A DNA stretch of 64,000 nucleotides from an uncultured Alphaproteobacteria bacterium (GTDB taxonomy: Bacteria; Pseudomonadota; Alphaproteobacteria; RF32; CAG-239). The DNA lies in assembly GCA_944391705.1 (NCBI GenBank), contig CALXUN010000007.1:197-64196 (forward strand), in the 5' to 3' direction. The position numbers and the translations under genes are program-made. Below, in pieces: positions 3,246 to 47,519 of this stretch (positions are counted from its first letter, which is position 1; each line of letters opens with the position of its first letter). The notes under the pieces are model-generated. The model was given only the letters and a program-made list of their open reading frames with translations, did not search any database and was not told the DNA's origin.

Positions 3246-3266
3246 AAAATTTTCCTTTCCTTAAAG

Positions 3267-3989: not shown

Positions 3990-3995
3990 TTTTAA

Positions 3996-4298: not shown

Positions 4299-4313
4299 AA
4301 AAAAACTCCGAGT

Positions 4314-5045: not shown

Positions 5046-5055
5046 GGGAAACCTC

Positions 5056-5598: not shown

Positions 5599-5616
5599 AA
5601 ATTTTCAAACTGTAAA

Positions 5617-16454: not shown

Positions 16455-16464
16455 TCATCACAAT

Positions 16465-16495
16465 AAAAAATTCCGGATTTTCCGGAATTTTTTTT
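16465..16495. terminator. Bidirectional terminator between the pilT-like gene and the pil operon
   Basis: aaaaaattccgga-ttt-tccggaatttttttt between convergent genes. Confidence 0.8.
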
Positions 16496-16502
16496 AATTA
16501 TT

Positions 16503-17093: not shown

Positions 17094-17094
17094 T

Positions 17095-18213: not shown

Positions 18214-18227
18214 AATATATACCACTC

Positions 18228-19892: not shown

Positions 19893-19910
19893 TTTACGAC
19901 ACACCCCGCC

Positions 19911-21437
19911 TTATTTAACGAACATTCCCGTTCCCAATGAAGGTATGCCTCGTTCGGCTGCTACGCCACCGGATGATTTTCTAGGAGCAGCGACGGGTTT
20001 TCTCGGCGCTTTGGCACTTGTTGTTGCCGTTCCTTCCATATTTTCCGGTTCCATGGTCATGGCGCTTCCGCTGGTGTACAGATAATCTTTCAAGCCGTTA
20101 CGGTCAAACTGTATATAGTTGGGCGTAATCGCTTCAATAGCATGTCCGGTCTGCAAGATTGTACCCTTCCGTGCCAGAAAAGATTCTCCTTCCTTATTAA
20201 TAAGTTTTGCAACCAATTCATCACCTTGTCCGGTGATGTCCATTATGGCATATTCTTTTGAAATATTAACCGGAACAATTTTTGCGTCAATGGATGTCGT
20301 AACGGCAGCATTTTTATTTTCGCCGCCTTTATTGGCATCAAAAGGATTTTTTTGCCGGTTTTTGGCAGCCAGAGCTTCAGCTTCAATACGTTTTTTCAAC
20401 TGAATATTCTGAGCCGTCAAACTGGCCAGGGTGCGATCATGGTTGCTTTTGGCATTATTAGCGCTTTGAACGGCTTTATTTGATAAAGTATTCAAAGCAT
20501 CAAGCTTTTGTTTGAAGTTGTCAACCAAAGATTTTCTGTCAGCTTCAATTTGGCGCATTTGCTTATAAACCTCGGCATTTTCGGCAATCCATTTCTGATT
20601 TTGCTCCAACATGCGATTCATGTAAGCGTTTAACACTTTTTTCTGTTTGAGCTTTTCTAATTCGATTTCTTTTTCTTTTAACAGTTGTTGCTCTTTTAAA
20701 ACTTTGGCTTCTTGTTCTTTTTTCCATTCAAACTCTTTACGTTTTTTTTCTTCCTCGGCAGCGGCTTTTTCTTCCAGAGCTTTGGTTCTCTGAGCTTTAA
20801 TGGCTTCAATTTCATTACGAAGTTTTTCGCGTCGCAGTTCCAAGGTCAGCAAAGTTGTCTGTTTTTCAATGTCAGACATCTGGCTGAACAGATCGTTGTC
20901 TATTTTTGCCAGAACATCATCCCCGAATTCCTTTGTACTTTGAGGCTTGGGAGCTTCCTGCTTTGCAGCCATAAGCGGGTTAGTGTTTCCGGTTGTCGGG
21001 CCGGATGCCGCCGGTTTTGATGCCGTTGCAGGCAAAGGAGGAACATCGCTTTCAACGCCTAAAGAAAAATCCATATCCTGATCAAAGTTTTCAGGACTTG
21101 GCGCTGCTTCTGCATTTGTTTCGGCAGGCAAGGCCGGAACGGAAGCAGGCGCCGGAACAACATCATTAGAAGCGGCTTTGGGCGCCGGAGAAATTAAACC
21201 GGCATTGTCCAGGGGAATAACCTCGTCATTAGGCAGAGAACTTGGCAAATCAGTATCCATAGACAGTTCTGCCGAAGGGACAGCAGCCTCATTGGCATTG
21301 TTATCAGGTGCAGATGCTTCGTTGTCTTCAACCAGTGAGACAACGCCCTGCGCCTCACAGGGCTTGACTGCATTTAAAGTAATAAATGAAATCAAAGCGG
21401 CTGTAAGTAAATTTTTATATAAAAGCTTATAATACAT
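19911..21437 (-). CDS. Enlarged PilP-like pilus biogenesis protein
   Basis: Signal peptide, Pro/Ala linker, long coiled coil, C-terminal IMDITGQGDELVAKL..G...KGTILQTGHAIEAIT beta domain; lies between pilO and pilQ. Confidence 0.6.
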   Translation of the reverse strand: MYYKLLYKNLLTAALISFITLNAVKPCEAQGVVSLVEDNEASAPDNNANEAAVPSAELSMDTDLPSSLPNDEVIPLDNAGLISPAPKAASNDVVPAPASVPALPAETNAEAAPSPENFDQDMDFSLGVESDVPPLPATASKPAASGPTTGNTNPLMAAKQEAPKPQSTKEFGDDVLAKIDNDLFSQMSDIEKQTTLLTLELRREKLRNEIEAIKAQRTKALEEKAAAEEEKKRKEFEWKKEQEAKVLKEQQLLKEKEIELEKLKQKKVLNAYMNRMLEQNQKWIAENAEVYKQMRQIEADRKSLVDNFKQKLDALNTLSNKAVQSANNAKSNHDRTLASLTAQNIQLKKRIEAEALAAKNRQKNPFDANKGGENKNAAVTTSIDAKIVPVNISKEYAIMDITGQGDELVAKLINKEGESFLARKGTILQTGHAIEAITPNYIQFDRNGLKDYLYTSGSAMTMEPENMEGTATTSAKAPRKPVAAPRKSSGGVAAERGIPSLGTGMFVK

Positions 21438-22716
21438 ATATCGCTCCTTCGTAATACCAGTTATGGCTGTTTATATCATATTTAATAGTATTAATCTTAA
21501 GTCCTGAAAAATTCATTAACAAATCTTTCCATTGCAACGGATCATGATTTGATGTGAAATTGAATTTAACGGAACGGTAGACATTTTTTTGCGGGGAAGT
21601 CCATGTTTCCGTGTTCATATTAATTGACATCTGAATGGCCTGGAACAAATCATTAATCATATTAACCAAATCGACCCCGTTTTTTTCCGGCGGAGAATTT
21701 AAGTTTTTGACATCGGTTATCGGTACGGACACAACAACACTGTCGCCTCGGGCCGAAATTGACCGACTGGAAAAGGTAACGCCTGAATTATTCAACGCAT
21801 GATCCATCCATGACAGCCGTCCAACTTCACGTTTCCATGATGTCACCAATCCGGTCGGTGTACAGGTAATGCCCTCAATTTTCCATCCCGGTACAATAAT
21901 ACTGACCACATCTTGGGTTGCCTTATAACATTTTTCCAAAATGGCCTGCGGATCTGGAATACTTTCCCAGGGTTTGGGTTCCGGCGGCGGGGGAGCCTTT
22001 TCGATTTTTTTAACGGGAACCGGTGCAATAATAGGCTTTTTAGGAGGAGCAAGGAAAATTGAATTAATCAAAGTTGAAACCAACCAGATGGCCACAACGG
22101 CAATTGCAGCCACAACGGCAAACAACTTTGGTCCCCGGAGGGCACGTATTTTTTGTAAATATGCCGTAGCTCCCTTGTCAACCATACTTTCAAGAGACAT
22201 TTCTTCTGTCTCTTCAATTCCCCATTCGGCCGGTGCAATCTTGCGTCCCCAGTCAGGAACGGCCAGCATGGACATAAATTGTTCTCTGGCGTCTTCTTCA
22301 TTTAAGAACAGCATATCACCGTCAGAAAGGATAATATCATTTCTGGCGCAAACGTACCACCATCCGCTATTTACTTTAAAAACCGCCAAAAAAGACGATC
22401 TGTCCGATAATGCCGTAGCAACAGTAACAGCTGCTGCCGGCATTTTCTTTTTATATCCCTGATATGATACGCAAAGACCAAATTGAGGAGATTTGCCGGG
22501 TTTAAGACAGAATAAATCAGCTCCTTCCAAAACATTTTCGGAAGCTTCAATGATTTCCGTAAAAGGGTCGTCCCGGTTTTGTAACGGCTGCCAGAAGAGG
22601 CTGGCGGCGTAAGGCACACCGCCAATTTCAAAGTTGGTTCCCCAAGCTTTGGCTTCATCTCTTTCCGGAGCTGCTTCACCGGAATAGTTTTCATCTAAAT
22701 TAGCATCTTCCAGCAC
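21427..22716 (-). CDS. Type IVb pilus accessory protein PilO2
   Basis: YAASLFWQPL, AAAVTVA, WWYVCARNDIILSDGD, AP.EW, central TM, PPPEPKPW, PGWKIEGITC. Confidence 0.8.
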   Translation of the reverse strand: MLEDANLDENYSGEAAPERDEAKAWGTNFEIGGVPYAASLFWQPLQNRDDPFTEIIEASENVLEGADLFCLKPGKSPQFGLCVSYQGYKKKMPAAAVTVATALSDRSSFLAVFKVNSGWWYVCARNDIILSDGDMLFLNEEDAREQFMSMLAVPDWGRKIAPAEWGIEETEEMSLESMVDKGATAYLQKIRALRGPKLFAVVAAIAVVAIWLVSTLINSIFLAPPKKPIIAPVPVKKIEKAPPPPEPKPWESIPDPQAILEKCYKATQDVVSIIVPGWKIEGITCTPTGLVTSWKREVGRLSWMDHALNNSGVTFSSRSISARGDSVVVSVPITDVKNLNSPPEKNGVDLVNMINDLFQAIQMSINMNTETWTSPQKNVYRSVKFNFTSNHDPLQWKDLLMNFSGLKINTIKYDINSHNWYYEGAIYVL

Positions 22717-22731
22717 GGTTTTTCCTTTCCG

Positions 22732-24372
22732 TTAATAATTCATTCTCGATTCAGGAGATAAAGGTGTATTCAGCACCACCGGCGTCAGCATAATCACCAA
22801 AATACTTCTGGTTTTTTCAGCTGTGGCCGTACCACCCAAAAGCGAATTTTCCGCAGAGCCGACACCGGTTTTGTTTGCCGTGTTTTCAACTCTCTCATAG
22901 CCGCTCAAAATCAGCGTTTCGCCAGATTTCAAAGCAACTTCCTGCGTAAAGCCGCGAGTTTCAATAATCGGGTTTTGAATATACTGACCGCTGGTTTCTT
23001 CCGAACCTTCGCCGCTGCCGCCCAAGTCAACTCTTTCCAACTCAATCAAGTCAGACAATGTCAGGTTAAACATCAGCATCAAACGGCCATGTTCCAAAAT
23101 CCGCGGCAACACATCAAGTGTGAAACCTGTTTCAATTTCTTCGGTTTCCGTTGACAAGTCATAGTAGCTGCCATCGCTGCCTGAATTTGTCTTCGTGATT
23201 TCGGAAATATAATTCTGGGTTCGGACAACTTGAATAGGTGCCGGCTTATTATTTAAAGTCGTAACCGTACCGCTGGTAACCAACGTTGTCGTACCTTGTT
23301 CAGACAAAGCTTGAATAGCGCCTTGCAGCGTCCAGCTACCGGAAACAATCGCCATTGACAAGTTTTCGGTAATTTCAGCACCCAAACCGCTACCTGGGCT
23401 GGCAAATCCCAAGTCAGTAATGTGGCTACCGCTGATACCGCCGTCGGCTCTGGTGCCGTTAAACACGGCGCCCAAGTTCAAGCCGTATTGATCGCTGTCT
23501 GAAATCGTAACTTGCAACACTTTAACGCTGATAGCTACTTGCCGTGACAATCTAACGTTCTGTTCATTAACAAATTTTGCCACTTTACGGATATCTGTCG
23601 GTGTACCGGTTAAGGTAATGGTACCGTTGGACTGATCCATTGTCAGTTGTGCTCCTTGGCTGATCATTGATTTAATTGAGGATTCAATATTTGTCCACAA
23701 ATCAATGTTTGCCGTATTGGTCAAAGATACAGATGACGAGCCTGCACTGCCTTCCGTAGATGAGCCGCCGACATTAACCGACAGCGTCGGCTTGGTCGGA
23801 AGAGTGTATAATACGAAAGTTTTAGTAATATATTTATAAAAATAAATTTGCTTATTTTCATACTTCCACCAAATGCCGAAACGGTTTGATACTTCATCAA
23901 GCAAGCCGCTTAACGGACCTTTGTAAGAAACAAGCATTTTAGTGCTGTCTGTCCATTGGGCGCCGATAGTTTCCAGACTGGGGGCATTCCCATCAGCCAG
24001 ACTTTTAGAATTTTCTTCCAGTTCCTGATCATAGCGGACAGACAAAGAGGTGATTTTATTAATCATGTCACCGATTTCAAACAAAGTAATCGGGCGGTTA
24101 CTGATTAAAGTAACACCATCTGCCGTTTCCAGATAGCTGGGAACAGGGTCGCCTTCATACTCAATCTCGCTGGTATCTCCAAGCCATATATCATCCTTAA
24201 CCCGGATGACATCGGTAGGAGCAGGCGTAGTCGGCACTTTTGCCTCTTCTTTGAGAGCAACTGTGTTTTCGACCTCCCGGTCCAGCGTGGCGTCCAAATC
24301 GGTTGAAACGGAGCAGGCTGCCACAAGCCCGGCTACGGTCGTTCCAATAGCCAAATTGATAATTTTATTCAT
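22732..24372 (-). CDS. PilN-family lipoprotein secretin
   Basis: Lipobox LVAAC, YKGPLSGLLDEV..RFGIWW, RQVAISVKVLQV, TTLNNKPAP, LKSGETLILSG, LVIMLTP. Confidence 0.9.
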   Translation of the reverse strand: MNKIINLAIGTTVAGLVAACSVSTDLDATLDREVENTVALKEEAKVPTTPAPTDVIRVKDDIWLGDTSEIEYEGDPVPSYLETADGVTLISNRPITLFEIGDMINKITSLSVRYDQELEENSKSLADGNAPSLETIGAQWTDSTKMLVSYKGPLSGLLDEVSNRFGIWWKYENKQIYFYKYITKTFVLYTLPTKPTLSVNVGGSSTEGSAGSSSVSLTNTANIDLWTNIESSIKSMISQGAQLTMDQSNGTITLTGTPTDIRKVAKFVNEQNVRLSRQVAISVKVLQVTISDSDQYGLNLGAVFNGTRADGGISGSHITDLGFASPGSGLGAEITENLSMAIVSGSWTLQGAIQALSEQGTTTLVTSGTVTTLNNKPAPIQVVRTQNYISEITKTNSGSDGSYYDLSTETEEIETGFTLDVLPRILEHGRLMLMFNLTLSDLIELERVDLGGSGEGSEETSGQYIQNPIIETRGFTQEVALKSGETLILSGYERVENTANKTGVGSAENSLLGGTATAEKTRSILVIMLTPVVLNTPLSPESRMNY

Positions 24373-25114
24373 ATGCATTCTCATCCTCCATTGTTTCAAC
24401 CACTAAGACACGGTTTCCTTTATAAAAAGTTGCAATCGGTGCCGGCCGTGCTCTGGCAAAAGCTCTGATTAAAGCTGAACTGACGTCGGCAAACCGTCCT
24501 CTGAACATAGCGCCGGCACTTAAAACATAATTACGGTTGGTATTCCAGACCAGGCGCCAGCCGGATTTTTCACTCCATTCGGTTAAAAGGGCTTTTAAAT
24601 TCTGTCCTTCTTCGGCCAGCCAATCCTGAACAGGGTCTTCAATGTCTTCCATATCTTCTTCATCTTCAATATCACCGCTTAAGCCGTCTTCGGTGTCGGC
24701 AATTTCCTCTTCAACGGTTTCTGTTGTTTCAGAGGTTAACTCTGAGCCGGGATTGATTTGTTCTTCATATTCAATAACCTCGTCTTCAATGGACGGCGGA
24801 ATGGAAGCCGAAAGATTGTTGCCGGCTGCAGCCTGGGATATCATTGAATCACGAGGCGTTCTTTCGCCGTATTCTCTATAGTCAGCTGCCGTTCTCGTAT
24901 AATTGACAAACGGGTCCGTCGGGCACAATTCCGGATCATTCGTCGTCTGACAAATATAATCATCCGGCGGCAGGGTAACATTTTCCGCAGCGACAACCGG
25001 TACAGGACAATTGGGGCCGCTGCATTGAGCTGTATATGCGGAATTGTTGCGCACACAGCCGGCTATGCCCAAAAGGCCGATCAGGCAGGCCGGTAAAAAT
25101 AGTTTTTTATTCAT
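24365..25114 (-). CDS. PilL/TcpQ-domain lipoprotein
   Basis: Lipobox IAGC, acidic linker, C-terminal WLAEEGQNLKALLTEWSEKSGWRLVW...F.G.F TcpQ pattern. Confidence 0.75.
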   Translation of the reverse strand: MNKKLFLPACLIGLLGIAGCVRNNSAYTAQCSGPNCPVPVVAAENVTLPPDDYICQTTNDPELCPTDPFVNYTRTAADYREYGERTPRDSMISQAAAGNNLSASIPPSIEDEVIEYEEQINPGSELTSETTETVEEEIADTEDGLSGDIEDEEDMEDIEDPVQDWLAEEGQNLKALLTEWSEKSGWRLVWNTNRNYVLSAGAMFRGRFADVSSALIRAFARARPAPIATFYKGNRVLVVETMEDENAYE

Positions 25115-25198
25115 GTTTAATTCCCCTTTGTCATACTTCATAATATTTTCCAATCATACAGGCTGCAAATTAAATAATCAAGTTTTACAAAACACTTA

Positions 25199-27025
25199 TT
25201 ACCATGGACGATAATAAGAATTATTGCTGCTGTTTTTATTTACCACAACCTCTTCATTGTTGTTAAAACGAATATTCCTAATAATAAATGAATTTGGCTC
25301 GCGCGATGTGAAAACAATATTTATTTTTCTGAAATCAACACCGCGGTTGGCTAAAATGGTGCTTAGCAGGTTCAAACGCTTTTTTTGCAGAGCAAAAGAG
25401 CTGGTTCCGTCAATTCTGATTTCAATATACATGTCGTTGTTATCGCGGGCGGTGTCGGCAAAAGCGTGTATCCACCGCAGTGTTTGACCGGAAATTTCAG
25501 CCCTGTTCGGTTGAAATGAAAGGCGCAGCTCAGCCGGTAAAATTTGCGTATCTGTTTTATTTTCATCTTCACCGGAAACAAAGCCGAAAAAGTCAATGCC
25601 GCTTTTTTTGCCGGAAGTTTTCTTCTGAACTTTTTGTTCTTTGTTTGTCGTGCTTTCTTTATCATCGGAAAACCAGGAGGCAATGCTCTTAAACAAACCG
25701 CTTTGTTTTTCGTTCTCGTTTAACTTTTTGTTGTTAACAACTGTTTTTTGTGCGGCATTTTTTTCAGCTTTCTTCTCAGTATCGTCAGGTTTCTCTTGCG
25801 GCGATGCCGTTAACTGAGGCGTAAGGTTCGTGTCGTTCATAATATCTTCCGGAATAGGAATAAGCAGATTTTGTATCATCTGATAAGCAACTTTTGTTTC
25901 TGTTCCGTCTTTGGCGTTTGTTTCCGGTTTTAAAGCATCTGAAACTTTTTTACTTTCTTCATCGGTAATGCCCGGCGTATTTTCGCCGGCGGGAGATGTT
26001 TCTTTGGAAACGGAAGGATCTTCTTTGGAAAAACGTTCGACAATGGCTTGATTTTTGGCAAATTTGTTACCTTTTGCCACAACCCACGGGCTGTCATTTT
26101 CCTCTTTTTCCGACATTTGAGTCCATTCGTCTTGTTTCAAGTCGGCTTCGGCCAGCGTTTTTTCTTCAGGTTCTTCAATTTCTTCAATTGTGCTGACCAG
26201 GTTGTTTGGTTCCAGCATGGCAATTTGCGCCGAACCTGTATTTTGGGCAACATTTATATGTGCATGAAGGGTGTCGTTTCCTTCCAAAAGCGGAATATCG
26301 CTTTCTTCACCTTCAAGAAGAGATTGTTCGGAAATATTTGTTGTGTTCGGCAAGTCGTTTGCGGCAACAAGAAGTTTTTGCGGCTGTTCGGTGTTGTTCG
26401 CACCTTCGGGGGTATAGATGGCTTCCGGCAGATTTTCCGGTTCCGGATTGTTTTCATTATTGTTCGTATCAAAGGTGTCGCTGATGTCAGCATAAACGAT
26501 GCCGTTTTTTTCATAATCGTTTACCGGTTCGGCTTTGGTGATGATATTTTCTTTTTCCAGGATGATTTCTTTGGCGGCGGCCAGATCGGTATTAATTGTT
26601 TCTTTTTTTGTTTCCGATATAGCCGGGGTGATTTTTTGGACATCCGGTTCTTTAATGCTTGAAGCCGGCATTAAATCCGGCAGGTTTGCTCCGATAATAA
26701 TATTATCAGATGTGTCGGGCGGAGGCGGCGGCAGAGCACCGGCAGCAAACACAGCCGTACTTCGATGGTCTGTAATGTTTTCTAAAGGTGGAACGGCTGC
26801 TGTTAATTTTTCAATTTCGCTGATATCAACAGAGCTGTTTTCAACCATTGGCGTCAAATTATCAGAAGGAGCGGAAAATAAAGAAATGTTCTGAATTTTT
26901 GTGCTTTTTTCCGTTTTCCGATTTTCTGTTTCCGGGGCATGCATAAACACTTTATTGACGCAGATAACGGCCAATAAAGAAAATAAAAAGCTGCAAATAA
27001 AATTTTTTATGCTTTGTTTATGCAT
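25199..27025 (-). CDS. Membrane-anchored acidic protein with a degenerate OmpA-like C-terminal domain
   Basis: N-terminal TM, ~450 aa low-complexity E/N/P/T region, C-terminal LSFQPNRAEIS...LQKKRLNLLSTILANRGVD; heads the pil operon. Confidence 0.5.
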   Translation of the reverse strand: MHKQSIKNFICSFLFSLLAVICVNKVFMHAPETENRKTEKSTKIQNISLFSAPSDNLTPMVENSSVDISEIEKLTAAVPPLENITDHRSTAVFAAGALPPPPPDTSDNIIIGANLPDLMPASSIKEPDVQKITPAISETKKETINTDLAAAKEIILEKENIITKAEPVNDYEKNGIVYADISDTFDTNNNENNPEPENLPEAIYTPEGANNTEQPQKLLVAANDLPNTTNISEQSLLEGEESDIPLLEGNDTLHAHINVAQNTGSAQIAMLEPNNLVSTIEEIEEPEEKTLAEADLKQDEWTQMSEKEENDSPWVVAKGNKFAKNQAIVERFSKEDPSVSKETSPAGENTPGITDEESKKVSDALKPETNAKDGTETKVAYQMIQNLLIPIPEDIMNDTNLTPQLTASPQEKPDDTEKKAEKNAAQKTVVNNKKLNENEKQSGLFKSIASWFSDDKESTTNKEQKVQKKTSGKKSGIDFFGFVSGEDENKTDTQILPAELRLSFQPNRAEISGQTLRWIHAFADTARDNNDMYIEIRIDGTSSFALQKKRLNLLSTILANRGVDFRKINIVFTSREPNSFIIRNIRFNNNEEVVVNKNSSNNSYYRPW

Positions 27026-27129
27026 TATTTTATTATACTCCGATGTGGAAAAAGACGTAAAAACAATTTATTAAAAAGATTTACATGTTTTTCCGCGGTT
27101 TTGTTGCTTAAACGATACAACTAATAATA

Positions 27130-27144
27130 TTAAAATAGGGTTAA
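27130..27144. promoter_or_regulatory. Possible CtrA-type box TTAA-N7-TTAA in the divergent pil/virB intergenic region
   Basis: TTAAaatagggTTAA; the AT-rich background makes a chance match possible. Confidence 0.3.
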
Positions 27145-27455
27145 TAGAAAGAGTTAGGGTGTTTTTTTTGTAAAGCAGGCGTTGTTTTATTTAAATTGAA
27201 AAGTTTCAACATGCTTTTGCTGATTGATAAAATTTTTTAAGAAAAGAAATTAGAAGTTTATTTACTTTTATTGGCTATAAAATAATGGATTGGATGCCTG
27301 TGTTGAATGTGAATTTTTTGTTACACGGTTTATTTTTTTAATTAAAACAATATGTTGGTATGTTTTTGGTAATTGAAAAAAAACTGGTAAAATGATTTCA
27401 AATCTGGTATTCTAAAAATGTATAAGAAGTTTTGTGATAACTTAGGAGAAAAGCA

Positions 27456-27812
27456 ATGAAGTTTCTTAAAAATAATATCTTCACCCTGCTCGCCTTAGGG
27501 TTGGTGTTTGTCTTGGCAGTTACCTGCGATGCAAATGCTGGTAGTGTTGGCGGAGCCAGTGTTATGACAACAGCCAGACAGAAAGCGGTTGATGTGTTTA
27601 AGGCTGTTAAAACCATTGTTTTCGTAATTGGTGGTTTCGGTTTGGTAGCTTTAGCATTTCAGGCGATTTTCGGTAAAGTTAAATGGCCTTGGTTTGCGGG
27701 TCTTGCCGTTGGTCTGGCCATTCTGGCTGCTGCCGGGGCAATTGTTGAATATGCTACGGGTGATACTGATGCCGGTACGCAGGAGATGGGTGATACTTTT
27801 GGTAATATTTAA
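27456..27812 (+). CDS. TrbC/VirB2-like pilin 1 (probable major pilin)
   Basis: Signal peptide (ANA), two hydrophobic helices joined by AIFGKVKWPW; AGGAG RBS; upstream of virB3/virB4. Confidence 0.75.
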   Translation: MKFLKNNIFTLLALGLVFVLAVTCDANAGSVGGASVMTTARQKAVDVFKAVKTIVFVIGGFGLVALAFQAIFGKVKWPWFAGLAVGLAILAAAGAIVEYATGDTDAGTQEMGDTFGNI

Positions 27813-27828
27813 CACTCCGAAACAGTTA

Positions 27829-27859
27829 AGGGAAAAGCCATTTCGGCTTTTCCCTGTTT
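27829..27859 (+). terminator. Hairpin after the first pilin gene
   Basis: agggaaaagcc-atttc-ggcttttccct followed by gttt. Confidence 0.65.
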
Positions 27860-27997
27860 GGGAGGTTTTTGACCTGATTGGAAAATAAAGAAGCCGGGCT
27901 GAACAAAACATTGTACCTATTTAGGTTGCCGGAGTATTAATATAAACAGAGCGGTTTTCTTTAAGACGAATTTTACAGATAATGAAGGGGCTGATGG

Positions 27998-28351
27998 ATG
28001 TTGGGTGTAAATTTTAAGAAATATATTTGTGCAGGACTGCTGGCATTTGCACTTTCTTCGATTTTATGCGCAACAGATTCTTATGCCGTGTTTGAAAATT
28101 TAACCAGCACCGGCTGGGAAATTTTCGGCGGCATGCGTAAAATTATTTTCGGCGCCGCCGGCTTTGGTATCATTGCTATTGCCATCGGCAGTTTTTTTGG
28201 CGCCTTAAACTGGAAATGGCTGAGTGCAATTATTATCGGTTTGATCGTAATTGCCTTAACCGTTGGTCTGGTACAATATCTGGTAGCAGGTACCGGGGCG
28301 GATATCAGTGTTTCGGGCATAACCGATACATTGGTAAACGCGGAAGGATAA
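27998..28351 (+). CDS. TrbC/VirB2-like pilin 2
   Basis: Signal peptide, IIFGAAGFGIIAIAIGSFFGALNWKW; paralogous to pilin 1. Confidence 0.7.
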   Translation: MLGVNFKKYICAGLLAFALSSILCATDSYAVFENLTSTGWEIFGGMRKIIFGAAGFGIIAIAIGSFFGALNWKWLSAIIIGLIVIALTVGLVQYLVAGTGADISVSGITDTLVNAEG

Positions 28352-28382
28352 ATATTGATAACCTGATTTTAAGGAGGTGGTC

Positions 28383-29471
28383 ATGATGGGGAAAATAAAC
28401 AAGATGTTAGCTTTTTTATTGCTGGGGTTGATTGTATTTTCGCCGGCCGGCGCCTTTGCTGCCAGTGGTGATATTTTTACGATTATTTCCAATAAAATGA
28501 TCACCACCATCCAGGATGTTCGTAAAATTGTTTATATCATTGCCGGCTTCGGTTTAATTATGTTTGCCGTGCTGGCTGTTTTTAATAAAATCAGCTTTAA
28601 ACACCTTTCTTATATCATGATAGGCCTTTCGCTGTTATCGGTCATGATGCCGTTTATCAATTACTTTAGCGGTGCTAATTTGGAAGATTCCGAATATTCG
28701 TACGAAAATTTCATAGCCGGCGGCGATGCCAGCATTACAGGGAGTGATTTGGGCGATTTGACGGAATGTACGGGAGCTATCTGTCCCGATGGATTGGAAG
28801 GCGGTCTGGGAGATAATAATGGGCTTGCAGGATTGCCTAACGGTTTGCTGGATGATTTGAAATCTGATCTTCCGGATTTAGATTTGGCAAATATTACCAC
28901 GCCGTATGATAAGAATGGCTGCCGGACAGTAAACGGTGAGCAGGACTGTTGCGAAGGGACGGTTAAAAACGGCCAATGTAAAAAAAGCTTTAAGCAGACA
29001 TTTAAAGATATTGCAGAAACGGCAAAAAATATTATTGCCGGGGGAAAAAGCATTGTTGGCGCGGTGGATTCAGGCATCAATGCTGTTAATGCTGCTAAAG
29101 AAGGCATGGATAATATCGGTGATATTATTTCCGGTGATGGAAATGTGTTTGATAAACTAGGCGGCTTGGCAGGTACTGTTGGTTCTACGATAGGCTCAAT
29201 AACCGGTGGTACGGCAGCGGCTATGGGCGGCTTAGGCTCTGCTTTAGGTTATGCGGGAGCTGCCGGGGATGTTATTAAGGGAGATGACAGTACATCCAGT
29301 GCAATTGATAATTCCGGTGTCGGTGATGCTTTGGATGTAATTGGCAGTGGTGCCAACGATGTCGGCAACGAAGTTCGTGATTTTACAAGTACGACCGAAG
29401 ATTTGGCCGGATATGGCAATCAGGCTGTTAATATGGGCGAAAAGGTTAAAGATTGGTTTGGCAGAAAATAA
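28383..29471 (+). CDS. VirB2-like pilin domain fused to a Cys- and Gly-rich extension
   Basis: Signal AFA, IVYIIAGFGLIMFAVLAVFNKISFKH aligns with pilins 1 and 2; ~260-aa tail; AAGGAGG RBS. Confidence 0.6.
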   Translation: MMGKINKMLAFLLLGLIVFSPAGAFAASGDIFTIISNKMITTIQDVRKIVYIIAGFGLIMFAVLAVFNKISFKHLSYIMIGLSLLSVMMPFINYFSGANLEDSEYSYENFIAGGDASITGSDLGDLTECTGAICPDGLEGGLGDNNGLAGLPNGLLDDLKSDLPDLDLANITTPYDKNGCRTVNGEQDCCEGTVKNGQCKKSFKQTFKDIAETAKNIIAGGKSIVGAVDSGINAVNAAKEGMDNIGDIISGDGNVFDKLGGLAGTVGSTIGSITGGTAAAMGGLGSALGYAGAAGDVIKGDDSTSSAIDNSGVGDALDVIGSGANDVGNEVRDFTSTTEDLAGYGNQAVNMGEKVKDWFGRK

Positions 29472-29588: not shown

Positions 29589-29879
29589 ATGCGTGATATG
29601 ATTTTAAAAGCCGTGGCTCAGCCGCCCAAGATTTTTTGGGGGCCGGTGCTTCCTGTCGCATTAAATGTCGGCCTGCAGTTTCCGCTCATGTTTATGATGA
29701 TTGGTGTTGGCGACATGAATCCTCTCTTTTTTATCTGTACGATTTTACTGGCACATGCTGCCATTGTTTTGGCCGGTACCCGCGAACCGCATTTGTCAGC
29801 TATGATTCAGGCTTTTGGCCAGACTAACAAAGTTTCGAACAATTTGTATCCGGAAAGGGGAAATAAATTTGAACCCTGA
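29589..29879 (+). CDS. virB3: VirB3-like protein
   Basis: KAVAQPPKIFWGP, two TMs, LAH...REPH; overlaps the virB4 start. Confidence 0.75.
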   Translation: MRDMILKAVAQPPKIFWGPVLPVALNVGLQFPLMFMMIGVGDMNPLFFICTILLAHAAIVLAGTREPHLSAMIQAFGQTNKVSNNLYPERGNKFEP

Positions 29880-32301
29880 TTTTGACTTTTTTACAATGTT
29901 TGTTGAAGGCTTGAGCAATGTAGAAGTTGCCGTGGCCATCATAGGTTTTATCTCGGCGGCAGCATTTGCCGTGCTTCTTTCAACCAAATTCGGTTCCTGG
30001 GTGCTGCCACAACCGAGAGAATCTCGCGTATCTGACTTTTTGCCTTTTGCCAAGCTTTTGGAAGATGGTATGACAATTCGCTGTACCAACGGGTCTTATG
30101 CGCGGGTTTTCCGTATAACCGGCATGGATTTATCTTCGGCAACGCCGGAGAAGGTTTATTCTATGATGGAGGCTCGGAAATCCTGGATTGATAACCTTTC
30201 GGAATTGCAAATCGTCTGTCGGGTTATAACGCTTCGTGAGCGCAGTGAAATGGAAGACGAACAGGGGGACTTCCAAAATGAGCTGTTGGAAAAAGTTTCC
30301 AAGGTTTGGGCGGAAAACATGAGCCGGATTTATACCAACCGGCATTATGTGGTTTTATCGGTTATTGACCGTAAAGATGCTTTGAAAGATTTAAACTATG
30401 CCAGTCAATCATTGATTGCAACTTTAGGTGAGTATGGCGTATCGCAAATGTATGAAGCGCCGGACAGCCCTGCAACAGATAGTCCTTTGTATGTTTTCAG
30501 CCGTTTATGCAGCCCCGTTTCCAAACCTGAGCCGAAAATCCGCAATGCCGAAGGGGCAGAATTAAATGAAATGCTTACATCTGATCATATACATTTCACA
30601 CGCGAGCAGGGAATTATCCGTTTCTTTTCCGGAGATAAAGAACTTTATGAAATAGCCATGGGTATTCGCACCACGGGTGATTTTATGGATGAAAGCATGA
30701 TTGTCTCACTGCTTTCGATTGACTGCGAATTAGTCTTAATGCACAACATCCGCCCGATTTTCAAGCCTCAGGCACGGATGATACTGATTCAGCAACAAAG
30801 AATGGCGGTTTTAACGAGCTTTTCACCGGAAGTCGTCAATCAATACAGCCAGGCGCTGTCCACCATTGAGGATAGCGATGCTGATTATCAGGCTTTAACT
30901 GAGTATTCCATGACGGTTTTGTTAAAAGGTTCCAGCAAAGAGGAGTTGGATTTCGGAGAAGCTGAAGTGCAGCGTATTTGCCGCAGTTTCGGCGTGACGC
31001 CGGTTCGCGAAGGCTGGGTGGCTCAGGCAACGTTTTTCAGCCAGTTTCCGACATATGACACCTATCCGAGAACTTACCGTTATTTATCGCGGATTGTTGC
31101 ACTGGCAATTTCTTTTGATAAACCGGCGGAAGGCTTTAATAAAAGCGACTGGGGGCCGGGAGCAATTACGGTTTTCCGGACGATGTCCGGTTCGGCATAT
31201 CGTTTTCAGTTCCATGTTTCTTCTGAAGAATCAGCCGTGGCACACTGTTGTATTATCGGACCGACCGGCCAAGGTAAAACGACATTGCTGACATTTTTGG
31301 CAGGACAGGCCATGCGTCACAGTGATTTGAAAGTGTTTTTCTTTGACCGCCACCGCGGTGCGGAAATTTTTACCCGTGCCATCGGCGGGGCGTATGTCGG
31401 CTTTGACGGTGATAATAAGAATGTATCGCTTAATCCGTTTGATGCGGATAATACGCCGAACAACAGAGCCTTTCTGCGCCGCTGGATGAAATCTATTACT
31501 TTGGCAGATGATGCGCTTTCCGAACGTGAAATTGCCCGCGCGGTTACAACGGCGTTTGATTATCTGCGGCCGGAAGAACGGATTATGAAAAACCTGTATA
31601 AGAGCTGTTTTTCACCGACCGGAACCATGCGTCGGGAATTATATCGTTGGATTAATCCGGATCAATACGGCAATATTTTCAATGCCGAAAATGATAGTCT
31701 GGATTTAAAATCCAAACGCTTTATGGCTTTTGATTTTACCCATATTTTTGAAGATGAAACCTTAGCGCCTGCCGTTATCAGCTACATTATGCACCGTATT
31801 CAGTCAGAAACCGGTGAAACCGGTGTTCCGTCCCTGATTATGATTGATGAAACGGCGCCGATGTTAAAACACCCGATGTTCAGGGATTATTTTATGATTG
31901 GTTTGCAAGAAGGCCGTAAAAAACGTCAGGCTTATTTGTGTGCTTTCCAACAGCCGAATATTATTGACAAGCTGGGTGTCGGCGAGGTTATCCGCGGTCA
32001 GTGCCAAACGGTTATTTTCTTCCGCAACCCGCAGGCAATGCCGGAAGATTATGCTACTTGGAATTTAACCCAGAGCGAGCTTGATTTTGTTTTTGGTAAA
32101 ACTTATCGTGATTTTCCGTATGCCATATTGTTATCGCGTCCGGCAACCGGAGAATCAGTAATCTTAGACGTCAATTTAGGCGCATTAGGCCCATACTTAA
32201 AGCTCTATAACTCCGGCCGGAAAAATGTTTTACTGGTTGAAGAGCTGATAAAAGAATATGGCGAAAACAACTTTGTTACAAAATATTTAAATATGGCTTA
32301 A
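29869..32301 (+). CDS. virB4: VirB4 family T4SS ATPase
   Basis: YRFQFH, HCCIIGPTGQGKTTL, FFDRHRGAEIF..A.GG.Y, LNPF, IMIDE, RKK...FQQP. Confidence 0.9.
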   Translation: MNPDFDFFTMFVEGLSNVEVAVAIIGFISAAAFAVLLSTKFGSWVLPQPRESRVSDFLPFAKLLEDGMTIRCTNGSYARVFRITGMDLSSATPEKVYSMMEARKSWIDNLSELQIVCRVITLRERSEMEDEQGDFQNELLEKVSKVWAENMSRIYTNRHYVVLSVIDRKDALKDLNYASQSLIATLGEYGVSQMYEAPDSPATDSPLYVFSRLCSPVSKPEPKIRNAEGAELNEMLTSDHIHFTREQGIIRFFSGDKELYEIAMGIRTTGDFMDESMIVSLLSIDCELVLMHNIRPIFKPQARMILIQQQRMAVLTSFSPEVVNQYSQALSTIEDSDADYQALTEYSMTVLLKGSSKEELDFGEAEVQRICRSFGVTPVREGWVAQATFFSQFPTYDTYPRTYRYLSRIVALAISFDKPAEGFNKSDWGPGAITVFRTMSGSAYRFQFHVSSEESAVAHCCIIGPTGQGKTTLLTFLAGQAMRHSDLKVFFFDRHRGAEIFTRAIGGAYVGFDGDNKNVSLNPFDADNTPNNRAFLRRWMKSITLADDALSEREIARAVTTAFDYLRPEERIMKNLYKSCFSPTGTMRRELYRWINPDQYGNIFNAENDSLDLKSKRFMAFDFTHIFEDETLAPAVISYIMHRIQSETGETGVPSLIMIDETAPMLKHPMFRDYFMIGLQEGRKKRQAYLCAFQQPNIIDKLGVGEVIRGQCQTVIFFRNPQAMPEDYATWNLTQSELDFVFGKTYRDFPYAILLSRPATGESVILDVNLGALGPYLKLYNSGRKNVLLVEELIKEYGENNFVTKYLNMA

Positions 32302-32385
32302 AGGACAAAATATCGTTTTGTGTTTTCAAAGCTGTGTGTTAAAATAAAAATTAGTATGAAAACGAACTTTATAAAGGGGGTCAGT

Positions 32386-34197
32386 ATGAACAAAAAGCAA
32401 TCTTTCAAAATTTTTTGTTTAACCTGTACGGGTATGCTCATGCTGGCTTTACCGGTAAAAGCGCAATGGCCGACGCTTGATTTATCGCAGGTAACCAACA
32501 TGATTAATGGATGGACATCCCAGATTGAATCAACATCTTCTACCATCCAATCGACATTATCTGTTGGTAATATTCAACAGCAGCTCGGGGATGCTATCGG
32601 CGGTTTGTCAAAATTTACCGACGCCAAAGAAAAAGCTGAAAAATTGGCAGAAAAAGTAGAAAAGCAGAAAAAGCGCGCTGAAAAATTAATAGAATTAAAG
32701 AAGAAGTTTGAAGAACAGGTAGAAAACGCCAAAAAATTTGCGGATAATGTCAAATCAGAAGTAAATAGCGTCGTTGATGCCGGCAAAAATTTATATGAAG
32801 AAGGCATGGAAATTTATGAAGAGGGAAAATCTATTTACGATGAAGGCATGGATATGTATGAAGAAGGGAAAGCTCTTTATGAAGAAGGAAAAGAAACAGT
32901 AGATGCTTTTCAAGATGTCATAAATGGCGGAGAATCTGCTACGGAAACAAATAGCGGTGATATAACAACGGAAAACGAAGAACAGCTCACCGAAGAAGAA
33001 ATTATGGACAGCGAGGCTTTAGACAATGAAGCGATTGCGGATTTGATTTCTGATGAAGAATTTTCCGAAGGAAGCTGGAGTGGTGAAGGCGGATATTTTG
33101 GAACAGAGGCAGAATTTTCCGAAGCAGGTGTTGATACGGCATTGCCGACAATTTCCGGGGAAACCTTATCTGTCGAAGAAGAAACGCTTATCGGCCGTCA
33201 GCCGTTTGCAAGTGGAAATTCAGAGGGAAAAAATGCGGTTTCGGATGAAACGCAAACATCGGAAGCTGCATCCAAAGGTGTTTTAACAACCAGTGGAATT
33301 AGTGCCGTTAAAACGGGTGTGGAAACTGTAAGTCCGACTGTTTCCAAAGAGTTAACCACTTCAGATGACAAAATTTCTGTTAAGACAAACGGAATATCAT
33401 CGACGTCAATCAAAGAAACCCCGGTACGCCGTGCTTTTACAACGCAGTCTGCTACAATGAAGAACACATCAGTAGAAACATCGGCGAAAGAATCTGATTT
33501 GTCAGCTAAAACAGCTGTGCAACCGGCAGTCAATTCGGTATCTGCTTCCGGGGCGGCTGTTTTGAAATCAAGTCCGGTTTCTGCGGAAACATCGGCCAGT
33601 TCCGTTTCACCGGCCAGTTCCGTTTCAGAAATAAAGACAGCACCTGTACGCCGTGCGTTTACGACATCTTCAGCTGATTTCTTGTATCAAGCCAGACAGC
33701 CAATGGCTTTTGCACAAACAACACCTGTGACCTTTAAAACCGGAACCAATAATGACGGCAAATTCATTTATTCGGATATTATTGCCAATAAATGCAGTAT
33801 AAATTTCGATGAAGTTGATGAAGAAAAAGTAATAGAATGCGTTAAAACCTGGGTTTTAGGTATGAATGATGCCAATGCCGAAACAGCGACAGACTGGAAA
33901 AACGAGTATAACAAGGCCAAGCGGGATCATGTCGCGGCAGATTTGGCTATGGCGCTGACGCAAAAAAACTATTCGGCATCATTTGATACGGAGGTTGCCG
34001 ATGATTTAGACAGCAAATCGGAAGCCTTAACCAACGAGCGTGAAGAAATTTCTTTTGTCGGCAAAGTCACTCAGACCAATCAGGAAGTCATTATTCGCTT
34101 GATGGAAGCTATGACCGGACAGGCCATAACGGAAGCCTGGTCAGCGATAGGAATCATGGATAAAGATTATTATGATGAGGAAGAGACCGATGAATAA
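32386..34197 (+). CDS. Secreted protein with VirB5/TrbJ-like N-terminus, heptad repeats and Ser/Thr linker
   Basis: VKA|QWPTLDLSQV start, coiled coil, acidic and S/T-rich middle, helical C-terminal domain; directly after virB4. Confidence 0.5.
   Translation: MNKKQSFKIFCLTCTGMLMLALPVKAQWPTLDLSQVTNMINGWTSQIESTSSTIQSTLSVGNIQQQLGDAIGGLSKFTDAKEKAEKLAEKVEKQKKRAEKLIELKKKFEEQVENAKKFADNVKSEVNSVVDAGKNLYEEGMEIYEEGKSIYDEGMDMYEEGKALYEEGKETVDAFQDVINGGESATETNSGDITTENEEQLTEEEIMDSEALDNEAIADLISDEEFSEGSWSGEGGYFGTEAEFSEAGVDTALPTISGETLSVEEETLIGRQPFASGNSEGKNAVSDETQTSEAASKGVLTTSGISAVKTGVETVSPTVSKELTTSDDKISVKTNGISSTSIKETPVRRAFTTQSATMKNTSVETSAKESDLSAKTAVQPAVNSVSASGAAVLKSSPVSAETSASSVSPASSVSEIKTAPVRRAFTTSSADFLYQARQPMAFAQTTPVTFKTGTNNDGKFIYSDIIANKCSINFDEVDEEKVIECVKTWVLGMNDANAETATDWKNEYNKAKRDHVAADLAMALTQKNYSASFDTEVADDLDSKSEALTNEREEISFVGKVTQTNQEVIIRLMEAMTGQAITEAWSAIGIMDKDYYDEEETDE
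32794..32898 (+). repeat. Five 21-bp degenerate repeats (YEEGxxx heptads)
   Basis: YEEGMEI YEEGKSI YDEGMDM YEEGKAL YEEGKET. Confidence 0.85.
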
Positions 34198-47518: not shown

Positions 47519-47519
47519 A

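Follow-up and report, generated by a model that had tools for sequence, protein, structure and literature searches.

Three tandem open reading frames (ORFs) encoding VirB2/TrbC-type pilins sit directly upstream of virB3 and virB4 in the window, the 64,000-nucleotide stretch of DNA that was analysed. The original prediction had described three tandem pilins, the third with a long tail, and this arrangement is confirmed. The genes and signals at the locus are the following.

27366..27393, + strand: promoter-like site upstream of pilin 1, TTGGTA-16-TAAAAT with TG, from a consensus scan only
27456-27812, + strand: pilin 1 ORF, 118 aa, a canonical VirB2/TrbC pilin
27815..27870, + strand: RNA hairpin and T5 run, immediately 3′ of the pilin 1 stop codon
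27998-28351, + strand: pilin 2 ORF, 117 aa, a second VirB2-type paralogue
28377-29471, + strand: pilin 3 ORF, 364 aa in its longest frame
29589..29879, + strand: VirB3-like small membrane protein, 96 aa, with two hydrophobic segments
29815..32301, + strand: VirB4 ATPase (PF03135, E 1.1e-14; TIGR00929, 379.9 bits)

The promoter-like site falls within a 430-nt divergent intergenic region (27026-27455), and the nominal TTG start of virB4 overlaps virB3. The name VirB3 rests on position and size because the protein has no Pfam match; a VirB3-like gene lies directly 3′ of pilin 3 in 31 of the 32 loci with any match. An AGGAGG at 28369-28374 precedes the pilin 3 ATGs at 28383 and 28386, and this site, together with a database twin of 361 aa (P0001), suggests that one of these two ATGs is the true start of pilin 3. 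The pilin genes head a virB-type operon, and the triad, in the order pilin 1, pilin 2, pilin 3, virB3, virB4, recurs in 33 of the 35 related gut-MAG loci, the remaining two ending at a contig edge, as well as in 6/6 other-genus genomes examined.

Hydropathy analysis assigned each of the three pilins a signal-peptide-like segment and two hydrophobic helices with a short basic loop, and predicted cleavage sites of the Ala-x-Ala type precede the mature part in all three. The hydropathy peaks of pilin 3 lie at residues 10-28, 51-69 and 76-98. Fourteen columns are invariant across the three proteins, I-x5-GFG among them, and pairwise core identity between the paralogues is 27-28%. The core motif originally proposed to be shared by the three is real but was slightly out of register; corrected, it reads [KR]-x-I-[VI]-[FY]-x3-GFG-[LI] ... 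F-[GN]-x3-[WF]. When the PF04956 (TrbC/VirB2) profile was run on each pilin, as had been proposed, pilin 1 scored 35.6 bits, above the curated cut-off of 27.9 bits, whereas pilin 2 (23.3 bits, E 7.8e-5) and pilin 3 (19.1 bits, E 1.5e-3) fell below it. A precomputed PF04956 match is present in 15 of 99 pilin-3 homologues. Pilin 1 has 917 homologues, the best 120 of which all carry PF04956; names in these records include 'TrbC/VirB2 family protein'. Comparison of a pilin-3 profile (71 homologues) with a pilin-1 profile (31 homologues) by hhalign gave a probability of 98.8% (E 8.1e-17) over 103 columns. Taken with the structural matches below, the PF04956 scores and the profile alignment uphold the assignment of all three proteins to the VirB2 type.

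Pilin 3 can be divided into five segments.

28377..28676, + strand: residues 1-100, signal peptide and VirB2-like helical-hairpin core
28677..28796, + strand: residues 101-140, post-core linker and Cys131-x4-Cys136-Pro loop
28797..28910, + strand: residues 141-178, variable acidic Gly/Leu/Asp-rich spacer
28911..28988, + strand: residues 179-204, four-Cys mini-domain (Cys182, 191, 192 and 201)
28989..29471, + strand: residues 205-364, heptad-periodic amphipathic helical tail, including Gly-rich residues 263-297, and stop codon

The AF2 model of pilin 3 contains helices at residues 33-68 and 74-98 (pLDDT 76-83). This check by AlphaFold had also been called for, and the core is modelled as a helical hairpin whose two best PDB matches are conjugative pilins. 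Of 48,161 PDB chains, the R388 pilin 8s6h_A ranked first against model residues 31-99 (Z 7.9, rmsd 2.6, 69/69) and the N-pilus 8cw4 second (Z 7.2), although Z values of 6-8 are modest for a helical hairpin and within the range of common arrangements. In the same ranking the T-pilus 8cue stood 16th and the H-pilus 9hvc 35th. A further structural match, 7o3v_A (Z 6.7), spans the hairpin at residues 28-101 only, and a Foldseek search of the PDB with the full pilin 3 model returned nothing at E <= 0.001. Mean column conservation of residues 1-100 is 0.80; of the core columns, 16 are invariant and 24 nearly so across 71 sequences, especially in the inter-helix loop. The locus resembles those of known VirB2/TrbC pilins (R388 TrwL 8s6h, pKM101 N-pilus 8cw4, Agrobacterium T-pilus 8cue) in the signal peptide, the two-helix hairpin and the position upstream of virB3-virB4. 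Known mature proteins of this family have ~70-120 residues, whereas pilin 3 adds ~235 and its orthologues up to ~1900, on both sides.

In a phylogeny of the pilins, the three paralogue groups are each set apart by a supported branch (95/90, 97/91 and 98/95, pilin 2 being the clade with 97/91). Orthologue cores are 73-79% identical on average (pilin 1, mean 0.79 over 25 loci; pilin 2, mean 0.78), with a range of 62-98%, against 27-28% between paralogues. As judged from these comparisons, the three pilin genes are old, distinct, non-redundant orthologue groups under strong purifying selection. The original prediction had likened them to the multiplied virB2 genes of host-interaction systems. Such tandem multiplication is documented: Anaplasmataceae VirB2 arrays hold 8-15 copies (PMC3556328), Bartonella Trw systems carry multiple trwL and trwJ genes (PMC3406051, PMC4676284), and copy number and sequence vary by strain, all copies being small. 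What those arrays share with the present locus is that several virB2 genes stand in tandem within the type IV secretion system (T4SS) of a host-associated alphaproteobacterium, and one relative (L014) has an additional pilin 1 copy. Nevertheless, an explanation by three interchangeable copies that serve antigenic or host-range variation, as for Anaplasma virB2 and Bartonella trwL, is already disfavoured and very improbable. The copy number is three in 32 of 33 complete loci, the groups form separate deep clades with the orthologue core identities given above and a pilin 3 core dN/dS of 0.00-0.08, and the three pilins differ in architecture. The comparison thus fits poorly, since the locus holds exactly three deep, conserved orthologue groups.

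The strong hairpin described after pilin 1 was found in the position claimed for it. Its stem spans 27815-27864, with an inner 10-bp stem at 27830-27854 and the T5 run at 27866-27870; its minimum free energy of -28.7 kcal/mol corresponds to z = -4.46, and 0/200 shuffles were equally stable. Hairpins of <= -18 kcal/mol occur within 110 nt 3′ of pilin 1 in 33/33 related loci. In a control set, hairpins followed pilin 1 in 31/31 cases, pilin 2 in 1/31 and pilin 3 in 17/30, and were found in 12/124 random windows. The position of the hairpin is conserved and its sequence is not, and among the other-genus loci it is present in 4/6 and absent from 2/6. It may act as a leaky terminator or a 3′ stabiliser. 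Fimbrial operons similarly carry a stable stem-loop directly behind the major subunit gene and before the minor subunits and machinery, for example after papA; this likeness is an analogy only, a T-rich tail following the hairpin in 16/34 loci here and no clear U-tract being seen in 18/34. The proposal that pilin 1 is the abundant major subunit accords with a hairpin whose position is conserved in every related locus. In RNA libraries of two studies, Logan contigs run across the pilin 2–pilin 3 junction and cover part of pilin 3, although they say nothing on expression level and DNA carry-over is possible; none of these RNA-library contigs matched the pilin 1 gene or its hairpin with >= 90% likeness.

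Beyond the core, the alignment of pilin 3 with pilins 1 and 2 continues along their C-terminal tails as far as residue ~128 of pilin 3, so the extension starts there. All six predicted cysteines are present, at residues 131, 136, 182, 191, 192 and 201. Cys131 is kept in 58/71 homologues and Cys136 in 60/71, Pro137 is nearly invariant, and the Cys-x4-Cys-Pro loop is found in giant relatives too. The spacer that follows (residues 141-178) has the lowest conservation (0.26) and the most gaps (0.22) in the pilin-3 alignment, with pLDDT < 50. In a tail-only AF2 model, residues 170-209 form four short strands at pLDDT 73-89, and the residues of the four-Cys cluster are kept in 37-43 of 71 homologues. 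The term 'disulfide knot' overstates this 2+4 pattern of a Cys-x4-Cys-Pro loop and a separate cluster: one Cys pair and a four-Cys cluster ~45 residues downstream allow at most 1+2 disulfides, whereas a cystine knot has at least three, in a knotted arrangement, within one compact domain.

The remainder of the tail is helical and periodic, with a hydropathy autocorrelation of 0.40 at lag 7 and 0.37 at lag 14, and lag-7 z exceeds 2 in 71/71 homologue tails. The helices are predicted at pLDDT 25-43 in both the full-length and the tail-only models. The tail evolves fast (mean identity 0.30; dN/dS 0.03-0.46 vs 0.00-0.08 in the core). Because dN/dS is below 1, the tail Cys count is even (0, 2, 4 or 6) in 70/71 homologues, a DsbA-like gene is present within the window and heptads occur in every homologue, the tail is, on sequence evidence, real coding sequence and functional. 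The same observations favour the view of pilin 3 as a pilin core joined to a conserved, predicted extracytoplasmic module; the interpretation originally placed on the locus is, overall, partly supported.

Searches with the tail pointed to no known fold. By Pfam, neither the tail nor 26 giant relatives (20 long relatives and six giant orthologues) showed any known adhesin or receptor-binding domain, and the relatives gave only weak TrbC matches. A protein atlas search with residues 125-364 gave no usable match, a wide VIA-align search with the tail-only model reached a best Z of 5.4 from generic helix pairs, and comparison with an 11-sequence set of other T4SS-locus proteins gave nothing (best E 0.029). 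PDB profile matches to MCP, syntaxin, spike HR1 and vinculin (E ~1e-5 or weaker) were set aside as biased coiled-coil or helical-bundle hits reflecting shared composition and periodicity, not homology.

The Gly-rich segment at residues 263-297 is also present as described, with 32% Gly over 263-300 and 3% polar or charged residues, but it is not a conserved zipper. In this protein and its closest relatives, G/A/S recur every 3-4 residues, and weak matches to phage tape-measure proteins (phrog_58, E 0.002; phrog_305, E 0.0023; TIGR01760, E 0.0065), here judged compositional, could be read in the same direction: a zipper that enters the target membrane would turn pilin 3 into a pore-former or membrane-attack module carried on the pilus. 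Among 14 homologues inspected, however, the aligned segment contains 8-28% Gly and 9-37% D/E/K/R/N/Q, and 12 of the 14 lie at 8-21% Gly and 18-37% polar or charged residues; the Gly-rich character is limited to close relatives. The mean hydropathy of the segment is 0.85 and its maximum over a 19-residue window 1.15, too low for a membrane span, and all 19-residue windows of the 71 pilin-3 tails stay below 1.6. Pilin 3 matches no Pfam glycine-zipper family at E <= 1, and the segment lies inside the continuous heptad pattern. The features of a membrane-spanning glycine zipper are thus missing from pilin 3, and the membrane-attack reading, already disfavoured, has very little probability left.

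The point at which the extension begins bears on whether it stays attached. Pilin 3 could be a pro-pilin whose tail is cleaved at maturation, leaving an ordinary small pilin as the mature product; the tail would then be either a propeptide with a chaperone-like role or a free protein, periplasmic or secreted. The extension starts exactly at the pilin 1/2 ends, the flexible spacer comes after the conserved Cys-x4-Cys-Pro loop, and C-terminal trimming is a family trait, known for TrbC/VirB2 proteins such as RP4 TrbC and Ti VirB2. Yet a single S26-type peptidase gene, which is LepB-like, was found in the genome, and PF10502 found no TraF-like maturase in it; the N-terminal extensions of the giant relatives would require a second cleavage. 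Purifying selection along the entire tail also speaks against removal, though it is compatible with a released product. Cleavage is accordingly considered improbable.

Relatives from other genera extend the picture. Their third pilins have 944-2058 aa and are extended at both termini, entirely outside the two membrane helices: K/E/A-rich coiled coils flank the hairpin on both sides, the N-terminal extension sitting between the signal peptide and helix 1. By the same comparisons, the long-tailed third pilin appears to be a design kept across the whole bacterial order. Proteins of up to 2058 aa would be bulky for a helical pilus lattice, and other envelope parts are unusually large as well (VirB10 of 1428 aa; a beta-flower protein of 1208 aa). 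Both observations, and the near-invariant core with its inter-helix loop, as expected of a fixed docking contact, are in keeping with pilin 3 as an unpolymerised, inner-membrane-anchored assembly or structural part. The VirB2 hairpin would then serve as anchor and dock (e.g. for VirB6 or VirB4), and the coiled-coil extensions would reach across the periplasm or organise it, as a TolA-type tether or a spacer for an enlarged VirB9/VirB10 complex. This alternative is the more serious one, though still unlikely. The pilin 1 and pilin 2 cores are equally conserved, so conservation does not discriminate; moreover, a fast-evolving tail with a variable spacer is more readily understood as exposed on a surface than as a fixed strut inside the machine, and many homologues do without the Cys-rich mini-domain.

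The best explanation, on balance a probable one by a small measure, is that the locus encodes three non-redundant VirB2 paralogues, with pilin 1 as the major subunit and pilin 3 as a minor pilin or anchor that displays a fibrous module. It is proposed that the three paralogues head a chromosomal, vertically inherited, rvh-like T4SS, in which pilin 1 would form the major subunit and the conserved hairpin should, through partial termination or by protecting the 3′ end, raise its mRNA above that of the genes that follow. As sequence and model predict, the signal peptide and helical hairpin of pilin 3 would insert into the inner membrane as in any VirB2. The C-terminus of VirB2/TraA faces the periplasm as long as the protein sits in the membrane, and the outside once a conjugative pilus has assembled; by this analogy, the ~235 residues appended at the C-terminus of pilin 3 would lie outside the membrane or on the pilus surface. 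The appended part would open with the Cys-x4-Cys-Pro loop, closed by a disulfide, and continue through a flexible acidic spacer into a beta mini-domain with four Cys. Some ~160 residues of amphipathic helix in heptad repeats would follow, probably packed as a coiled coil or helical bundle around small residues. The Gly-rich stretch would be a local, lineage-specific form of this small-residue helical repeat rather than a membrane-inserting zipper. Pilin 3 may be incorporated into the pilus in few copies, whether at its tip, at its base or scattered over its surface, and the fibrous module may be displayed there for contact with a target surface, in a putative adhesin function that possibly fills the role of the undetected VirB5.

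In the usual picture, a T4SS pilus is built from a single small VirB2 pilin and carries VirB5 at its tip. No VirB5 (PF07996) was found at E <= 0.1 in the 100%-complete, 1.49 Mb genome of this gut alphaproteobacterium, and pilin 3 itself has no PF07996 match at E <= 1. The VirB5/TraC/TrwJ tip protein and pilin 3 would share a proposed role as low-copy, helical, pilus-exposed proteins that contact a target, but they are unrelated in sequence, and VirB5 is without a VirB2 core. A 625-aa ORF at 32320-34197 occupies the virB5 position and could be a divergent VirB5, which would weaken the idea that pilin 3 replaces it. Two-domain minor pilins such as TcpB/CofB (type IVb) and FimH (chaperone-usher) likewise join a pilin domain to a functional domain and are encoded beside the major pilin gene; their folds and assembly machines are unrelated, and the parallel is an analogy only.

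Other parts of the system are scattered. The window holds two VirB8 genes, three tandem TrbL/VirB6-like frames lie on another contig, VirD4 is encoded away from the pilin locus, and no PF03432 relaxase was found. A 1401-aa ORF was considered as VirB6 and rejected, its sole hydrophobic segment being N-terminal and VirB6-like genes lying on the other contig. To our knowledge, the rvh T4SS lacks VirB5. Its likeness to the present system is one of gene content: a chromosomal, scattered gene set, two VirB8, three VirB6-like frames, enlarged subunits and no VirB5 match found. Rickettsiales T4SSs are described in which some components are absent, others are duplicated and VirB6 carries giant extensions (PMC7648143). 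The present system differs in belonging to a gut MAG lineage of apparently free-living size (1.1-2.0 Mb) and in having VirB2 as well as VirB10 enlarged.

More speculatively, the whole order may build its T4SS pilus from three VirB2 paralogues, with pilin 3 as a 'fibre pilin' whose coiled-coil, disulfide-stabilised extensions, from 260 to ~1900 residues, would replace the VirB5 tip or adhesin role; this broader version is tentative and clearly less probable than the reading of pilin 3 as a minor pilin or anchor at this locus. If true, the extensions would cap or decorate the pilus and attach host or neighbouring cells on which reduced bacteria may depend, and pilin 3 would give T4SSs their first modular minor pilin derived from VirB2. 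A conserved set of three pilins, one of them bearing large modules outside the cytoplasm, would be a novel means of functionalising T4SS pili and would offer a handle on tip or base assembly in VirB5-lacking systems such as rvh.

Public records name the pilin 3 protein only 'TrbC/VirB2 family protein', and the literature searched contained no description of extended VirB2 proteins or of the T4SS of this lineage. A match is present in 197 of 201 genomes of the host order, all of 1.1-2.0 Mb; the system is core to a widespread uncultured gut lineage and may therefore be central to its contact with hosts or other microbes.

Pilin 3 is a VirB2-type membrane hairpin to which a conserved, Cys-bearing helical region is appended. 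It is encoded by the last of three tandem VirB2/TrbC-type ORFs, which are followed by virB3 and virB4 as listed below, and these three are the PF04956 matches in the whole genome (1.49 Mb, 37 contigs, 100% complete by markers).

27456–27812, + strand: pilin 1, ORF of 118 aa
27998–28351, + strand: pilin 2, ORF of 117 aa
28377–29471, + strand: pilin 3, ORF of 364 aa
29589–29879, + strand: VirB3-like, ORF of 96 aa, directly 3′ of the pilin set
29815–32301, + strand: VirB4 (PF03135, E 1.1e-14; TIGR00929, 379.9 bits)

The original prediction held all three to be VirB2-like, and profile homology, shared columns and predicted helices uphold this, although only pilin 1 passes the 27.9-bit PF04956 cut-off (35.6 bits), while pilin 2 falls short at 23.3 bits (E 7.8e-5), as does pilin 3 at 19.1 bits (E 1.5e-3, residues 6–87). 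By hydropathy, all three proteins show a signal-peptide-like segment plus a pair of hydrophobic helices; 14 invariant columns are common to them, and the paralogue cores are 27–28% identical. Of the 917 homologues of pilin 1, the top 120 all carry PF04956, those named being VirB2/TrbC. Profile–profile comparison of 71 pilin 3 with 31 pilin 1 homologues gave 98.8% probability (E 8.1e-17) over 103 columns that begin in the signal peptide and run through helix 2.

An AlphaFold model of pilin 3, made with the 71-sequence alignment, has a mean pLDDT of 48.9, but its core helices (residues 33–68 and 74–98) reach 76–83. Among 48,161 PDB representatives, the top two matches to this model are conjugative pilins, namely R388 TrwL (8s6h_A; Z 7.9, rmsd 2.6, 69/69 residues) and the N-pilus (8cw4; Z 7.2); the T-pilus and H-pilus rank 16 and 35. 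A Foldseek search with the model found nothing at E ≤ 0.001. For a helical hairpin such Z-scores are modest, and Foldseek returned no match, so the structural resemblance may be taken as supporting, not decisive.

Residues 101–128 of pilin 3 align to the C-terminal tails of pilins 1 and 2, which places the onset of the extension near residue 129. The parts of the tail listed next rest on the 71-sequence alignment together with the models.

Residues 131–137: Cys131-x4-Cys136-Pro loop, kept in 58–60 of 71 homologues, and found in the giant relatives too
Residues 141–178: variable acidic spacer (conservation 0.26, gaps 0.22)
Residues 179–204: four-Cys stretch, kept in 37–43 of 71 homologues; pLDDT 73–89 with four short strands in a tail-only model
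Residues 205–364: helical tail, predicted helix at pLDDT 25–43

The tail contains 0, 2, 4 or 6 Cys residues in 70 of 71 sequences, and the window encodes a DsbA-like protein (4314–5045); the even counts would fit disulfide pairs made outside the cytoplasm. The pilin 3 tail is acidic (41 D+E vs 18 K+R). Hydropathy over residues 206–364 autocorrelates at lags 7 (0.40) and 14 (0.37), and the lag-7 signal exceeds that of shuffled sequences at z > 2 in 71/71 tails and at z > 3 in 66/71. Pairwise dN/dS is 0.03–0.46 for the tail and 0.00–0.08 for the core, with many pairs saturated at synonymous sites and the five unsaturated pairs giving 0.03–0.26 for the tail. From these ratios and the lag-7 periodicity, the tail is a constrained, fast-evolving, heptad-repeat helical region and not disordered filler. 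Across 25 related loci (10 others being excluded as near-duplicates, truncated or short), mean core identity to the window orthologue is highest in pilin 1 (0.79), with pilin 2 at 0.78 and pilin 3 at 0.73; the pilin 3 tail has a mean identity of 0.30.

A glycine zipper had been proposed within this tail, a reading that comparison with homologues does not sustain. Gly makes up 32% of residues 263–300 in the window protein and charged or polar residues 3%, and the Gly-rich stretch has a mean hydropathy of 0.85, but the aligned segment in 14 homologues is 8–28% Gly and 9–37% charged or polar (8–21% and 18–37% in 12 of the 14). No 19-residue window in the 71 tails attains a hydropathy of 1.6, the window protein peaking at 1.15, and the Pfam glycine-zipper families have no match at E ≤ 1. 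The Gly-rich stretch is read as a putative lineage-specific, small-residue form of the helical repeat.

The pilin triad is ancient, fixed and non-redundant. A near-length search returned 99 pilin 3 homologues, most with 93–100% coverage at 30–99% identity, and a representative library yielded 341 at E ≤ 0.001. Thirty-five loci in public genomes encode a pilin 3 relative, all from MAGs of gut, rumen or faecal origin that bear the label uncultured Alphaproteobacteria, Azospirillaceae or 'Azospirillum sp. 51_20'. The order pilin 1–pilin 2–pilin 3 is kept in 33 of them, the other two ending at a contig edge before pilin 2. VirB3 and VirB4 come next after pilin 3 in 31 of the 32 loci giving hits, and PilN–TcpQ–608-aa genes lie upstream on the opposite strand in 26–27 of 32. 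In a maximum-likelihood tree of 65 cores (window plus 21 loci, 70 columns only, one pilin 3 row lost to a motif filter), a supported branch sets each paralogue group apart (95/90, 97/91, 98/95). The third gene is short in two related loci (144 and 178 aa). A single locus, L014, has a tandem pilin 1 pair (133 and 126 aa; 5120–5928) ahead of pilins 2 and 3.

Across the order, 197 of 201 sampled genomes match at E ≤ 1e-5 (22/22 genera, all 1.1–2.0 Mb), a figure that counts such VirB2 proteins generally, since the query also picks up pilins 1 and 2. Among the matches listed, the pilin-3-type core lies in open frames of 330–2063 aa in at least 15 of the 22 genera, and three genera have short frames only. 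Six genomes from other genera (loci L041–L046) were read fully, and all six encode pilins 1, 2 and 3 followed by virB3 and virB4. Their third gene spans 944–2058 aa, with the VirB2-like core internal, after a signal peptide and a long coiled-coil, Cys-containing extension. The PilN–TcpQ–608-aa arm is divergent and adjacent in five of the six, and L042 has no upstream hit listed. The pilin 2 orthologues of these loci (148–230 aa) have an N-terminal extension before the VirB2 core, so extension is not limited to pilin 3. In L045, VirB4 occurs as two adjoining ORFs (3056–5488, − strand; 368 and 435 aa), which could reflect a split gene, a frameshift or an assembly error. Class-wide, matches occur in only 22 of 301 genomes, and those from outside the family are confined to the core (query residues to ~128), mostly in frames of 107–199 aa. 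As these matches stop at the core, the genomes searched show the pilin 3 tail in this order alone.

The strong hairpin noted after pilin 1 is borne out: 27815–27864 folds at −28.7 kcal/mol (z −4.46, 0/200 shuffles equally stable), with a T5 run next to it. Scanning with a 45-nt window at ≤ −18 kcal/mol found a hairpin within 110 nt past pilin 1 in 33/33 loci, with differing stem sequences; onset is 2–23 nt past the stop codon in 33/34, a T-rich tail follows in 16/34, and 4/6 other-genus loci have the hairpin. In a control set of 31 loci, hairpins occur after pilin 1 in 31/31, after pilin 2 in 1/31 and in 12 of 124 random windows. On the 3′ side of pilin 3, 17/30 relatives (L001–L035) have a strong hairpin, which the window does not (−4.9 kcal/mol). 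The conserved hairpin supports a probable skew of expression to pilin 1, with a leaky terminator or a 3′ stabiliser as candidate roles. RNA-library contigs from two studies span the pilin 2–pilin 3 junction, consistent with co-transcription of pilins 2 and 3; they give no expression levels, and none lies on pilin 1.

Both termini of VirB2/TraA pilins are periplasmic in the membrane and outside in the assembled pilus. The extensions, C-terminal here and at both ends in other genera, would lie exposed, either in the periplasm or on the surface of the pilus. We infer that pilin 3 may be a subunit present in few copies, at the tip, base or shaft, where it would bear a fibrous contact module; it may take the place of VirB5, for which PF07996 matched nothing across the genome. 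The main rival to this displayed contact module, which fits the same data, is that pilin 3 does not polymerise and serves as an anchor in the inner membrane or as a strut in the periplasm. Pilin 3 might instead be a cleaved pro-pilin, but no second S26 peptidase was found in the genome and the N-terminal extensions of relatives fit this badly.

VirB2 is multiplied to 8–15 variable copies in Anaplasma phagocytophilum (PMC3556328), and its multiplication is documented for Bartonella Trw (PMC3406051, PMC4676284); both differ from the triad in being arrays of similar small pilins. In gene content only, the system resembles Rickettsiales rvh, with duplications, scattered loci and undetected VirB5. 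Literature searches, with most subscription journals outside their full-text scope, found no paper on a VirB2 bearing large extensions or on the T4SS of the present lineage.

Away from the main operon, the window's genome (G000) encodes VirD4 (739 aa; contig C1:156015–157586) and, on another contig, three tandem TrbL/VirB6-like frames (766, 452 and 1179 aa; C14:2852–9921); no PF03432 relaxase matched across the genome. Within the operon, VirB4 in its longest frame (from TTG 29815) shares 65 nt (29815–29879) with the VirB3-like ORF, and its true start is probably later, because relatives' VirB4 is often called at 810 aa, starting ~10 nt before the virB3 stop. VirB4 is followed by ORFs of 625, 228, 451 and 1401 aa. 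The 625-aa ORF (32320–34197) occupies the virB5 position. It combines a signal peptide and an N-terminal coiled coil with a long middle rich in Ser, Thr and Ala and a C-terminal part that is conserved. Apart from a weak DUF4141 hit (E 0.11), neither protein families nor PDB sequences matched it, and it might be a divergent VirB5. The 1401-aa ORF (36154–40359), without a match in the family search, was ruled out as VirB6, its sole hydrophobic segment being N-terminal.

Next come two tandem VirB8 paralogues (40371–41129 and 41473–42222), a CagX-family VirB9 (42248–43876) with a C-terminal, peptidoglycan-binding SPOR domain, a 1208-aa protein (43892–47518), a 1428-aa VirB10 (47472–51758; TrbI domain at residues 1111–1308) and VirB11. 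The 1208-aa protein and VirB10, both with many beta-flower repeats (PF21785, PF21784, DUF3659), form an envelope-spanning part of unusual size. Upstream and head-to-head with the T4SS operon lies a complete-looking type IVb pilus cluster (15495–27025, mostly − strand) encoding a PilN secretin, TcpQ, PilO, an ATPase, a platform protein and a bundlin-like pilin, as well as a second ATPase and the 608-aa unknown. The island is flanked by housekeeping genes (AddAB-type nucleases, thioredoxin, YidC, RNase P).
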